Assembly (NCBI RefSeq): GCF_003790525.1
Contig: NZ_CP033635.1
Length of the DNA stretch: 64,000 nucleotides
From: Escherichia coli
Lineage (GTDB): Bacteria; Pseudomonadota; Gammaproteobacteria; Enterobacterales; Enterobacteriaceae
Direction: 5' to 3' (one strand)
Below, piece after piece: positions 58,504 to 62,016 of this stretch (the first letter of the stretch is position 1; every line of letters begins with the position of its first letter). Under the pieces are notes generated by a model. It was not told where the DNA came from. It saw only the letters and a list, made by a program, of their open reading frames with translations, and did not search any database. Made by a program: the position numbers and the translations under genes.

Positions 58504-58958
58504 TGGAGTTAATGGTCGTTCATCCACATATTTTCTGGCTCAGTCTCGGCGGGTTGCTGCTGGCAGCCGAGATGCTGGGCGGAAATGGTTATTTGTTGTG
58601 GAGCGGCGTGGCAGCGGTGATTACCGGCCTGGTGGTCTGGCTGGTGCCGCTGGGTTGGGAGTGGCAAGGGGTGATGTTTGCCATCCTGACGCTGCTCGCC
58701 GCCTGGCTGTGGTGGAAATGGTTGTCGCGGCGGGTGCGCGAACAAAAGCACAGCGACAGTCATTTAAACCAGCGCGGGCAGCAGCTGATTGGCCGACGTT
58801 TTGTGCTGGAATCTCCGCTGGTCAACGGGCGCGGTCATATGCGCGTCGGCGACAGTTCATGGCCTGTCAGCGCCAGCGAGGATCTCGGTGCAGGTACGCA
58901 TGTTGAAGTCATTGCGATAGAAGGGATAACGCTGATCATCCGTGCGGTCATCGCCTGA
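58500..58958 (+). CDS. ybbJ: YbbJ, NfeD-like membrane protein partner of QmcA
   Basis: 152-aa [31 protein letters not shown]; overlaps the qmcA stop by 4 bp. Confidence 0.88.
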
Positions 58959-59045
58959 TGCGACGCTGACGCGTCTTATCATGCCTACAAAATATGCCCG
59001 AATCGTAGGCCAGATAAGGCGCTTGCGCCGCATCCGGCATATAGC
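58959..59045. repeat. REP-like palindromic element at the left edge of the ybbJ-cueR insert
   Basis: GATGCGACGCTGACGCGTCTTATCATGCCTAC ... GTAGGCCAGATAAGGCGCTTGCGCCGCATCCGGCAT, a REP inverted pair. Confidence 0.75.
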
Positions 59046-59060
59046 CGAGTAGAGGCAAAA

Positions 59061-59423
59061 TTACTCTTCCCGGCCTTTACCCATACTTTTTTGGTCTTCA
59101 TCCGGATAGTGTTTTTTTAGATATTCCAGGACGTTTTTATTGACCTTGTGTTGGGTATACACCCACCCTTTCCAGTAATCAGGTTGGTCCAGGTAAACTT
59201 CTGGCGGAATGGTGAAATCAGAAAGCGTTAACCATTCGGCTAACAGATCGGGGTTTCGTTTCTGGATCAACTGCAACAGCATGATCAGCGACATGGCAGA
59301 GGCAGGAGCCGTACTATCGCCGCTTAAATACTTCCACACTGTCGACCGGTTCGAACGAAAAAGGATCGGTAGCAATGCCCGGTCCAGATTCATTTCATTA
59401 AAAATCTTCTCAAATTCATTCAT
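59061..59423 (-). CDS. Hypothetical 120-aa cytoplasmic protein, possible small DNA-binding regulator
   Basis: ORF with AGGAAA Shine-Dalgarno 6 nt upstream of the ATG; no signal peptide; segment RSNRSTVWKYLSG resembles the recognition helix of small phage-type HTH proteins; transcribed divergently from the adjacent 338-aa gene. I do not recognise the protein. Confidence 0.5.
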   Translation of the reverse strand: MNEFEKIFNEMNLDRALLPILFRSNRSTVWKYLSGDSTAPASAMSLIMLLQLIQKRNPDLLAEWLTLSDFTIPPEVYLDQPDYWKGWVYTQHKVNKNVLEYLKKHYPDEDQKSMGKGREE

Positions 59424-59788
59424 TTAAATTTCCTGCCTGGCGTAAACCTCTTAAAAATTGAGATTTATCAAAGAAACGCATTTTAGCACACATCAGGAAC
59501 CGCTTCACGTTTAGTCCAGAAACAGAATTTATTTCGCTTATCAAAACAAGTCTTTACTCTTTTTTACATTGAAAGAGCACGAAATAATTTCCTTTTTTAT
59601 TTATATAAGAAACTATTTTTGTTCCTTATTGGTGGTGTTTACGCTTACACAAGACAAAAATGCGCTTTACATCACACAAATGGCGGCGTAGATTTCGATC
59701 AAATTGCAACGCAGTTTATTTCTTAAAACAATATTATTTGTTTCTTATAGAAACATTAATGCGACTTATTTTGAACAAGAGAAAATGA

Positions 59789-60805
59789 ATGAAAACTGTA
59801 AACGTAGCTTTACTGGCACTCATAATTTCAGCAATATCCAGCCCTGTTGTTTTAGCTGGTGATACCATTGAAGCGGCGGCAACAGAGCTTTCAGCCATTA
59901 ACTCTGGCATGTCGCAATCGGAGATTGAGCAGAAGATTACCCGCTTTTTAGAACGCACAGACAACAGCCCCGCTGCGTATACCTATTTGACTGAACATCA
60001 CTACATCCCTTCTGAAACACCTGATACCACTCAGACTCCCACTGTCCAGACAGATCCTGACGCAGGACAAAAAACCGTTGCCGCTACAGGTGATGTACAG
60101 ACAACCGCCCGTTATCAGAGCATGATCAACGCCCGACAGTCTGCGGTAACTGATGCCCAGCAAACGCAAATTACAGAGCAACAGGCGCAGATCGTAGCCA
60201 CACAAAAAACGCTCGCCGCGACTGGAGATACGCAAAATACCGCGCATTATCAGGAGATGATTAATGCCAGACTGGCGGCTCAAAATGAGGCTAATCAGCG
60301 CACTACCACGGAACAAGGGCAGAAAATGAATGCACTGACAACCGATGTGGCAGCACAACAGCAAAAAGAAAGGGCTCAATACGATAAACAAATGCAAAGT
60401 CTGGCGCAGAAGTCTGTCCAGGCACATGAGCAAATTGAAAGTCTGAGACAAGATTCCGCACAAACGCAGCAACAGTTAACCAACACGCAAAAACGGGTCG
60501 CAGATAACAGCCAACAAATTAACACGCTCAATAACCATTTCGATTCTCTGAAAAACGAAGTTGAGGACAATCGTAAAGAAGCCAATGCGGGAACTGCATC
60601 TGCCATTGCTATCGCCTCACAACCACAGGTGAAAACCGGTGACGTGATGATGGTGTCAGCGGGAGCGGGAACGTTCAACGGTGAATCTGCGGTGTCTGTA
60701 GGAACATCTTTTAATGCCGGAACGCATACGGTACTTAAAGCAGGTATTTCTGCGGATACACAATCTGATTTCGGTGCGGGTGTCGGCGTGGGATATTCGT
60801 TCTAA
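59789..60805 (+). CDS. Small trimeric-autotransporter-like protein: signal peptide, Gln-rich coiled-coil stalk with two internal repeats, YadA-like C-terminal membrane anchor
   Basis: 338-aa ORF: N-terminal MKTVNVALLALIISAISSPVVLA-GD signal peptide; repeats QKTVAATGDVQTTARYQSMINAR and QKTLAATGDTQNTAHYQEMINAR; heptad-like stalk; C-terminus ANAGTASAIAIASQPQ...GAGVGVGYSF matches the four-strand YadA anchor pattern ending in an aromatic residue. Confidence 0.75.
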   Translation: MKTVNVALLALIISAISSPVVLAGDTIEAAATELSAINSGMSQSEIEQKITRFLERTDNSPAAYTYLTEHHYIPSETPDTTQTPTVQTDPDAGQKTVAATGDVQTTARYQSMINARQSAVTDAQQTQITEQQAQIVATQKTLAATGDTQNTAHYQEMINARLAAQNEANQRTTTEQGQKMNALTTDVAAQQQKERAQYDKQMQSLAQKSVQAHEQIESLRQDSAQTQQQLTNTQKRVADNSQQINTLNNHFDSLKNEVEDNRKEANAGTASAIAIASQPQVKTGDVMMVSAGAGTFNGESAVSVGTSFNAGTHTVLKAGISADTQSDFGAGVGVGYSF

Positions 60806-60858
60806 TTTTAACAGCAATTTCTTATTCGCAATTTTCCGCACATTATTTAAGGTTAACA

Positions 60859-61281
60859 ATGATGAATAGCTCCATTAAATCGTTTTCCCTGCTGGCGGTT
60901 ATATTACTGGCTGGCTGTAGTTCACCCACTTCCCGCATCGCAGATTGCCAGGCGCAGGGCGTCAGCCATGACACCTGTTATCTCGCAGAACAGCAGCGTC
61001 AGACGGCTATTTTAAGTGCATCCGAGGCGCAGGCATTTAAAAATGCAGAAGCCGCACAACATGCCCAGGCGGCAAAGAAAGCCATTTATAAAGGATTTGG
61101 CATGACCTTTAGAATGAGCAGTAAGAACTTTGCTTATCTCAATGATTCATTATGTGCAATTGATGAAGACAATAAAGATGCCACTGTTTATCAGTCAGGT
61201 CTTTATAACGTCATTGTTTATCACCACACGGGAAAAGTCGCCTTAATGAAGGAAGGTCAGTTTGTGGGTTATTTAAAATGA
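60859..61281 (+). CDS. Hypothetical lipoprotein (140 aa)
   Basis: Signal peptide with lipobox LLAG-C (Cys20), three further Cys; AAGG ribosome-binding site upstream; 53 bp downstream of the autotransporter-like gene. Confidence 0.6.
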   Translation: MMNSSIKSFSLLAVILLAGCSSPTSRIADCQAQGVSHDTCYLAEQQRQTAILSASEAQAFKNAEAAQHAQAAKKAIYKGFGMTFRMSSKNFAYLNDSLCAIDEDNKDATVYQSGLYNVIVYHHTGKVALMKEGQFVGYLK

Positions 61282-61481
61282 AGGAGCAAAGGAAAATCCC
61301 CCTGACGCATATTATGATTATCGGTGCGTTTATTTTTGCCTTCTTGCAAGTGGTGTTATTAGCCTCCCTGGTTCACGCTGTGAATGTTAACAACGAAATC
61401 CAGGAAGGCTTATTTCAGTCGGGGCGCATTATGGTAGAAAGTTTGCAGCATATTCTTTCGGTGCAAACGGGGATTAACTGA
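61278..61481 (+). CDS. Hypothetical small single-pass membrane protein (67 aa)
   Basis: ATG overlaps the lipoprotein stop (ATGA), with AAGGAG inside the upstream gene; one hydrophobic helix IMIIGAFIFAFLQVVLLASLV. Confidence 0.45.
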   Translation: MKEQRKIPLTHIMIIGAFIFAFLQVVLLASLVHAVNVNNEIQEGLFQSGRIMVESLQHILSVQTGIN

Positions 61482-61484
61482 TTT

Positions 61485-61892
61485 TCACCCCGCCCGATGA
61501 TGACAGCAGCCGGAGAGATTTTCGATAATCGGGCAGTCGGCGCTGTCATCACCGGGGCAGGCATTCGCCAGCGCCAGTAGCTGGTTGCGCATGGATTGCA
61601 GTTCTTCGATATGCCGTTCGATCTCCGCTACCTTCTCCAACGTACGACGTTTGACGTCGGCACTGTGACGCTGCGGATCGTTAAACAGATTCACCAGCTC
61701 GCCGCTCTCTTCCAGGTTAAAGCCCACCTGGCGTGCCTGCCGCAGTAAGGTCAGTTCGTTGAGATGCTGCTGCGTGTAGGTTCGATAACCATTTTCGCTG
61801 CGCATCGGCGGCGTCACCAGCCCCTTCTCTTCATAGAAGCGGATTGCTTTGCTGGTCAGGCCGGTAATTTTTGCTACATCGCTAATGTTCAT
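61485..61892 (-). CDS. cueR: CueR, MerR-family copper-responsive regulator
   Basis: 135-aa [28 protein letters not shown] with C-terminal metal-binding Cys pair ([10 protein letters not shown]). Confidence 0.92.
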
Positions 61893-62016
61893 CGTTCGCG
61901 CAACGCCTCCTGTGCTTTGTTAAAGGGTTTCAACAAATATTCAAGCACGTTTTTTTGCCAGTGCGAATATCGACCGCCACCACAATAATACAGGAAGTAC
62001 TGCGCACAGAGAGGTG

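Follow-up and report, generated by a model that had tools for sequence, protein, structure and literature searches.

Between ybbJ and cueR, the 64-kb window analysed here (64,000 nt of the Escherichia coli contig NZ_CP033635.1, to which all coordinates refer unless another locus is named) carries an insert of 2,526 bp. The insert represents O-island 29 (OI-29) as carried by SMS-3-5, and with a probability of roughly 0.7 it forms a self-contained, regulated surface-protein cassette; the allele of the window is that of E. coli SMS-3-5 (100% identity). The cassette is not new, as it is already catalogued as OI-29, or S-loop 43, of O157:H7 and has been partly studied. The main yield of the analysis is a conflict over the annotation of its 338-aa gene product GmrA, together with a coherent model of a regulated cassette for a short trimeric autotransporter.

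The insert at the ybbJ-cueR junction corresponds to O-island 29

Positions 58959-61484 separate the stop codon of ybbJ (58958) from the stop codon of cueR (61485, minus strand). In K-12 MG1655, cueR ends at 514400 and ybbJ at 514401 with no intergenic base, so the length of the insert can be given as exactly 2,526 bp. The initial annotation had described the two genes as direct convergent neighbours in K-12, which was right, and all features it had listed for an insert of about 2.5 kb were found in place. Its view of the module as accessory agrees with the distribution: K-12 lacks the insert, and 1,375 of the 5,426 complete E. coli genomes (~25%), hence not most of them, contained at least 80% of the segment. 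The GC content of the insert was 44.0%, compared with 51.6% for the whole window, and the GC content at third codon positions ranged from 0.43 to 0.56 in its four genes, compared with 0.61-0.69 in qmcA, ybbJ, cueR and ybaT. Both measures are thus lower in the insert than in its surroundings.

At the same junction, O157:H7 carries a sequence with 96.8% nucleotide identity to the insert, and the open reading frames (ORFs) of the window are ~96-99% identical to their O157 counterparts. These are annotated in strain Sakai as ECs0546 ('putative lipoprotein'), ECs0548 ('adhesin') and ECs0549. Ogura et al. (2007) placed ECs0548 on S-loop 43, listing it as 'Saa-like protein' and as missing in K-12, and O-island 29 of EDL933 was described as '2,643 bp, z0638, z0639 (gmrA), z0640' (Yang et al. 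2018, PMC5826968). The lambda-Red homology arms published in the latter study were mapped onto an O157:H7 genome. The arms used for OI-29 delimit exactly 2,643 bp, matching the published size; those for z0638 bracket the lipoprotein gene, those for z0640 the 120-aa ORF, and those for gmrA exactly the 338-aa ORF with the YadA anchor. Because the published arms bracket precisely that frame, the 338-aa ORF is gmrA (z0639). The initial annotation had been unable to name a characterised homologous cassette; OI-29/S-loop 43 is such a cassette, and its 338-aa gene has been studied under the name gmrA.

The junction, the gene content and the gene order of OI-29/S-loop 43 are identical to those of the window insert. 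The difference in length (2,643 bp in O157, 2,526 bp in SMS-3-5) is intergenic, the gap between ybbJ and the gene of the 120-aa helix-turn-helix (HTH) protein and the gap between the autotransporter and lipoprotein genes being longer in O157. The fourth gene of the insert, for a 67-aa protein, is unannotated in the EDL933 and Sakai records.

Two details of the published deletions should be mentioned. The OI-29 arms end 9 nt inside ybbJ (L002 2051-2059, O157:H7, corresponding to window 58950-58958), and therefore ybbJ has also lost its stop codon and the two codons before it in the OI-29 deletion mutant. The z0638 deletion takes out the start codon of the 67-aa gene. In another strain, E. coli EcPF15 (NZ_CP054227.1), a transposase of the IS3-family element IS1397 lies inside the matched OI-29 region.

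GmrA has the build of a short trimeric autotransporter

The 338-aa protein, encoded on the plus strand at 59789..60805, is the orthologue of z0639 = gmrA (ECs0548), and the SMS-3-5 and O157 alleles share 96% amino acid identity. Its sequence layout is that of a type Vc (trimeric) autotransporter in a short form without a head. In both alleles the sole significant Pfam match was YadA_anchor (PF03895), aligned over the full model with residues 279-338 (E=2.6e-11). This YadA-type beta-barrel anchor (60623..60805, plus strand) ends with the C-terminus ...GVGYSF. The Pfam assignment was complemented by alignments to the PDB, in which the C-terminal 95 residues matched the anchor structures available for AtaA, Hia and YadA (E=5.6e-7 to 0.026). 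When eight family members were compared, 16 columns were invariant, every one of them located within or just before the anchor.

At the other end of the protein, a rule-based prediction made without SignalP places a Sec signal peptide at residues 1-23 (59789..59857, plus strand), with cleavage of MKTVNVALLALIISAISSPVVLA before GD. It shows K2, a hydrophobic core at residues 6-24 (Kyte-Doolittle maximum 2.32) and a VLA/GD cleavage motif, and a leader of this n/h/c type was kept in 11 of the 11 family members compared. Ala, Thr and Gln are abundant in residues ~90-275, which contain neither Cys nor Trp. Self-comparison of the protein gave a peak at offset 45 with 35 identities, and two copies of a stalk repeat of ~45 residues were recognised (60068..60286, plus strand; residues 94-121, QKTVAATGDVQTTARYQSMINAR..., and 139-166, QKTLAATGDTQNTAHYQEMINAR...). 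For stalk residues 100-270 the weak matches in Pfam and NCBIfam were to coiled-coil families only, and the PDB alignments begin within the stalk, at residue 244.

No head or neck passenger domain (YadA head, Ylp, HIM etc.) was matched by Pfam in the 338-aa protein. Such domains are typical of trimeric autotransporters but not required. Some relatives have a 45-residue N-terminal segment in common with GmrA, and the passengers of the family, carried by a conserved anchor, are mosaic and vary in length between 293 and 633 aa. A variable passenger on a conserved anchor is typical of surface adhesins. With this architecture GmrA is expected to be exported to the outer membrane and to expose its stalk on the cell surface. 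Its predicted signal peptide, putative coiled-coil-like stalk and C-terminal YadA anchor resemble those of the short Enterobacterial trimeric autotransporters of the Saa/Eib type; unlike these, GmrA has no detected head, neck or other passenger domain in Pfam and comprises only 338 aa.

A deviating gene model was noted in E. coli 09-02E (NZ_AP022650.1, L004 2873-4306), where the autotransporter allele is annotated in RefSeq with 349 aa from a TTG codon and without signal peptide. The open frame reaches further upstream; its product of ~471-477 aa then includes the conserved N-terminal segment as well as a normal signal peptide, and the annotated TTG start is probably wrong.

A putative HTH regulator and the divergent control region

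The 120-aa protein encoded on the minus strand (59061..59423), the orthologue of z0640 (ECs0549), is a putative regulator of the XRE/Cro-like type. Its predicted structure is a five-helix, lambda-repressor-like fold with an HTH of this type. The protein had no match in NCBIfam, PHROG or PADLOC, and its family is tiny: an exhaustive HMMER search of 1.84 billion proteins yielded 24 representatives, and 5 loci were found when 100,044 species genomes were scanned. Wherever enough undecayed flank was available, the HTH gene was arranged head-to-head with a YadA-anchor gene. The divergent partner encodes 338 or 477 aa in E. coli, 579 aa in Escherichia sp. E1V33, 415 aa in E. whittamii, and 363 and 633 aa in Pseudocitrobacter; the arrangement is also present at the metagenome loci L012, L013 and L016. 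XRE/Cro regulators with a C-terminal helical extension, such as Aca2, the C-terminal domain of MqsA and the controller C proteins of restriction-modification systems, are the closest type, from which the 120-aa protein differs by the lack of a significant sequence-profile membership and by the small size of its family.

The HTH and autotransporter genes are separated by a divergent, AT-rich spacer of 365 bp with 31% GC (59424..59788). An alignment of this spacer from 11 loci revealed conserved blocks, among them two promoter-like elements. The candidate sigma-70 promoter of the autotransporter operon, TTTACA-17 nt-TAGATT (59666..59694, plus strand), was detected by consensus scan and conservation; both hexamers are kept in most aligned loci, including Pseudocitrobacter, L012 and L013, whereas L016 diverges at the -35 element. 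For the HTH gene a candidate extended -10 element, TGcTAAAAT (59481..59489, minus strand), can be read from the sequence. Here the block ATTTTA.CAC is conserved among the loci, and a GAAAC motif (59473-59477) lies just downstream of the element. In general, consensus scans for intrinsic terminators and promoters gave counts no higher than in shuffled sequences, and only the promoter at 59666-59694 gained support, namely from its cross-locus conservation.

The spacer of the window contains five copies of GAAAC/GTTTC, whereas 0.7 are expected (p=0.0005). Likewise, 10 of the 11 loci have 5-8 copies per spacer compared with an expectation of ~0.7 (7-10-fold, p<=0.0005 by shuffling), and the positions of the copies are conserved. 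The perfect palindrome GTTTCTTATAGAAAC (59740..59754) is located downstream of the candidate promoter and ahead of the autotransporter start codon; it is a candidate operator and the sole exact match to GTTTC-N5-GAAAC within the 64-kb window. The GAAAC at the position of the palindrome is conserved among the loci; further GAAAC copies start at 59473, 59519 and 59609. We infer that the GAAAC/GTTTC motifs are candidate operator sites of the HTH protein.

The 120-aa protein, with its predicted DNA binding, is a likelier regulator of the cassette than GmrA. Deletion of z0640 caused no motility defect (PMC5826968), and for this reason a repressor role fits better than that of an essential activator. 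The HTH protein would bind the GAAAC/GTTTC operators in the shared spacer, including the palindrome ahead of the autotransporter start, and would control the autotransporter operon and probably also its own gene, repression being the most likely mode.

The lipoprotein and the 67-aa membrane protein

Downstream of gmrA, the plus strand encodes a lipoprotein of 140 aa (60859..61281), the orthologue of z0638 (ECs0546). It contains the lipobox LLAG/C20, and C20 was invariant in 20 homologues. Because Cys20 is followed by Ser at position +2 and no Asp retention signal is present, sorting to the outer membrane is predicted. A Cys30/Cys40 pair is conserved, and the structural model consists of a long helix (residues 37-68) followed by a confidently modelled C-terminal beta domain. 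Overlapping the lipoprotein stop codon with its start (ATGA), and translationally coupled to it, is the gene of the 67-aa single-pass membrane protein (61278..61481, plus strand), in which a single segment is strongly hydrophobic (Kyte-Doolittle maximum of 2.65 over 19 residues). Proteins with 35-42% identity are encoded at the same position in Pseudocitrobacter and at L012, and the 67-aa gene was met only inside the cassette.

Several genera share the order of autotransporter, lipoprotein and small protein, with the genes located at different chromosomal sites. E. coli, Escherichia spp., Pseudocitrobacter, Enterobacter asburiae and L013 have the lipoprotein gene 3' of the autotransporter gene; at L012 and L016 the autotransporter and HTH genes occur without a lipoprotein gene. 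The gene set that the initial annotation had put forward, with a putative regulator, a surface protein of the trimeric autotransporter type, a lipoprotein and a small membrane protein, was supported and recurs jointly in other Enterobacterales. In Pseudocitrobacter faecalis (L007 3766-5532, 8050-9936) an extra gene is found between the autotransporter and lipoprotein genes; its product of 588 aa has no Pfam or NCBIfam match.

The lipoprotein and the coupled 67-aa protein would be co-transcribed envelope proteins, possibly with a stabilising or assisting role for the autotransporter like that of SadB and TpgA for theirs. This helper role is put forward by analogy, as a hypothesis and not as a finding. 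Like the cassette, the SadB-SadA system of Salmonella and E. coli (PMC3953254) has the gene of a small lipoprotein in the operon of a trimeric autotransporter and is restricted to Enterobacterales. In SadB, too, a beta domain follows a helical N-terminal part, and a stand-alone paralogue, YajI, exists; no sequence or fold homology between the cassette lipoprotein and SadB/YajI was found. Moreover, the lipoprotein SadB sits in the inner membrane and is encoded upstream of its autotransporter, whereas the cassette lipoprotein is encoded downstream and has Ser instead of Asp at +2. A location directly downstream of the autotransporter gene, with presumed co-transcription, is shared with TpgA of the TpgA-AtaA pair of Acinetobacter sp. 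Tol 5. Unlike TpgA, the cassette lipoprotein has no BamE or OmpA-like peptidoglycan-binding domain in Pfam.

Evidence against the model and alternative explanations

Several results weigh against the reading of the insert as a regulated surface-protein cassette. For the 120-aa protein no significant Pfam HTH membership was obtained, the HTH part of MqsA_antitoxin reaching E=0.12. In the sole study in which an OI-29 deletion was tested for adherence, binding to HeLa and Caco-2 cells was unchanged (PMC5826968); GmrA differs in this respect from the Saa/Eib-type adhesins, no adhesin phenotype is known, and the role in adhesion considered in the initial annotation is so far without experimental support, as is its idea of a phage receptor or decoy. 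Three distant homologues of the lipoprotein (42-49% identity) stand alone, with no autotransporter, HTH or small ORF within 4 kb, and no similarity of the lipoprotein to SadB or TpgA was found. Finally, the published experiments on GmrA point to another function. Deletion of gmrA reduced motility in eight strains, His-tagged GmrA shifted a fragment of the fliA promoter in electrophoretic mobility shift assays (EMSA), which was not the case for flhDC or rpoS, and FLAG-tagged GmrA gave a 7.75-fold enrichment at fliA in chromatin immunoprecipitation followed by quantitative PCR (ChIP-qPCR; PMC5826968). Computation cannot explain away these EMSA, ChIP and motility data.

The findings on the lipoprotein leave some room, although we regard this as doubtful, for the explanation that only the autotransporter and the HTH protein form a functional unit. 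The lipoprotein and the 67-aa protein would then be independent envelope proteins that share the operon and have no role in autotransporter biogenesis, the lipoprotein being e.g. a small beta-barrel with an inhibitory or binding role like MliC, PliC or ACP. The stand-alone homologues, which adjoin unrelated genes, weaken the idea of the lipoprotein as an obligate autotransporter partner. The relatives of the lipoprotein in AFDB are widespread unnamed lipoproteins of Enterobacterales, loci L012 and L016 do without it, and a global survey of 2026 reported no helpers of trimeric autotransporters beyond SadB and TpgA. However, this survey required a YadA head domain and would therefore have skipped a head-less family. 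The existence of stand-alone relatives is also known for an established helper, SadB, with its paralogue YajI, and no Pfam MliC match was seen in the cassette lipoprotein even at E<=10. Its recurrent position 3' of the autotransporter gene at differing chromosomal sites and the confinement of the 67-aa gene to the cassette likewise argue for a connection. Thus, of the earlier proposal that the lipoprotein/membrane pair is a partner of the autotransporter, the part that stands is that the pair travels with the cassette, while the partnership itself is weakened by the stand-alone homologues.

It seems very improbable that GmrA is a DNA-binding transcription factor which activates fliA. This is the published function of the OI-29 gene, and it conflicts with the sequence evidence. 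Yang et al. (2018) started from a 'putative DNA-binding domain' reported by CDD and named GmrA a transcriptional activator that binds the fliA promoter (PMC5826968). Deletion of OI-29 or of gmrA lowered motility, flagella, fliA and fliC, and gmrA alone complemented the defect (PMC5826968). The phenotype in eight strains, the specificity of the EMSA shift for fliA and the ChIP enrichment speak for this function as well, and reviews from 2021 to 2024 have repeated the assignment as transcription factor. In the literature searched, no paper was found that connects GmrA with an autotransporter or names the autotransporter otherwise.

Against this stands the predicted export of GmrA, which follows from its Sec signal peptide and its significant YadA outer-membrane anchor. 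No significant family with a DNA-binding domain was detected in Pfam or NCBIfam. The sole Pfam match with DNA binding in its name was TMF_DNA_bd, a coiled-coil family, at E=0.08-0.16 in the two alleles, and the domain reported by CDD may have stemmed from a match of this type. Furthermore, the leader and the anchor are constant in all relatives and the middle part varies freely, which is the opposite of what would be expected for a DNA-binding domain. In the published experiments, EMSA was run with a protein whose N-terminal His tag preceded the signal peptide, and for ChIP the protein was over-expressed with IPTG (PMC5826968). Neither was the native exported form, and both were probably mislocalised. 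The motility phenotype of the gmrA deletion may well be genuine. If GmrA is an exported autotransporter, the loss of motility would be an indirect effect via the envelope or cell surface rather than a consequence of cytoplasmic DNA binding.

An origin of the cassette as the remnant of a phage or mobile element (a moron), in which the autotransporter serves as receptor decoy, in superinfection exclusion or in Eib-like immunoglobulin binding, is very unlikely: the matches of GmrA to the PHROG families 'adhesin' (E=1e-21) and 'tail' (E=8e-14), its 33-42% identity to YadA-anchor proteins in 43 phage records, the position of the Pseudocitrobacter faecalis cassette (L007) ~1.3 kb from a large serine recombinase of 628 aa, which hints at a mobile context, and the low GC content would fit, but the phage similarity is limited to stalk and anchor in the C-terminal half of GmrA, the HTH protein, the lipoprotein and the 67-aa protein gave no PHROG or PADLOC match when phage or defence origin was tested, and neither an integrase nor a tRNA nor att-like direct repeats were found at the E. 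coli site, whose borders are formed by the stop codon of cueR and a REP element.

History of the ybbJ-cueR site

At least three states of the ybbJ-cueR junction occur in E. coli: empty as in K-12, occupied by OI-29 (~25%), or occupied by an unrelated insert of 1.3 kb (L003 2060-3401). The latter encodes a 407-aa protein and was found in 311 of the 5,426 genomes, including Nissle 1917, ATCC 25922 and clone D i14; no match was obtained for this protein in NCBIfam, PHROG or PADLOC. In E. whittamii and Escherichia sp. E1V33, an OI-29-type cassette and the 407-aa insert are found in tandem at the junction. All occupied alleles share one 3' end of ybbJ, from which the empty K-12 allele differs in the last nine codons (window 58932-58958). 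The K-12 protein ends with ...ITLHIRAVSS, a substitution cluster right at the junction, and because of this clustering the empty K-12 state is not a clean excision product.

In Pseudocitrobacter and at L013 the cassette is located on the opposite side of qmcA-ybbJ. A decayed copy in Candidatus Symbiopectobacterium lies beyond an MCP gene that adjoins qmcA. The low GC content points to an ultimately foreign origin of the cassette. Yang et al. proposed four independent gains of OI-29 (PMC5826968). Differential loss from an older arrangement is as plausible, because both inserts coexist, the ybbJ end of K-12 diverges and relatives carry the cassette across qmcA-ybbJ. Horizontal acquisition, as suggested in the initial annotation, is thus in line with the accessory distribution and the low GC content, but a simple insertion is not the sole possible history.

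The Symbiopectobacterium locus (L010/L022) is a cassette that is decaying in a symbiont genome: the HTH gene is intact with 82% identity, the lipoprotein gene is split into fragments of 64 and 115 aa, and no YadA anchor was detectable in this locus. An ORF of 174 aa was considered there as a lipoprotein homologue and rejected (23% identity, no lipobox).

The segment directly 3' of the ybbJ stop codon (58959..59060) consists of REP-type, BIME-like extragenic palindromes, assigned by repeat matches and Rfam. The sequence at ~58937-59040 had a median of six matching places per E. coli genome. In Rfam, sub-threshold matches to the REP-derived family naRNA4 were obtained at 58919-58985 and 59008-75, and no other structured RNA was found in the island.

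On the other side of cueR, the gap to ybaT contains a 98-bp pseudo-CDS annotated in RefSeq (61881-61987). This stretch shares 92% identity with the 3' end of a gene for an HlyD-family type I secretion adaptor that overlaps cueR in O157:H7, where an island encoding a type I secretion system and a giant protein, probably OI-28, sits beside cueR. K-12 keeps the same remnant as the window. The presence of the adaptor-gene remnant in both suggests that K-12 and SMS-3-5 have lost this island by deletion, rather than O157 having gained it by insertion.

Implications for OI-29 and its relatives

Up to 2024, reviews have counted gmrA among the transcription factors of O157:H7, yet its sequence is that of an outer-membrane trimeric autotransporter. 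Within the cassette, the product of z0640 is the better candidate for a regulator, with operators that can be predicted. The lipoprotein and the small membrane protein, whose genes follow the autotransporter gene in a conserved order, make up a candidate new pair of accessory proteins of trimeric autotransporters that can be tested. If the reading of GmrA as an exported surface protein is true, the accepted model, in which GmrA activates fliA, needs to be tested again, and the motility phenotype of the mutants would hint that flagellar expression is linked to a surface protein.

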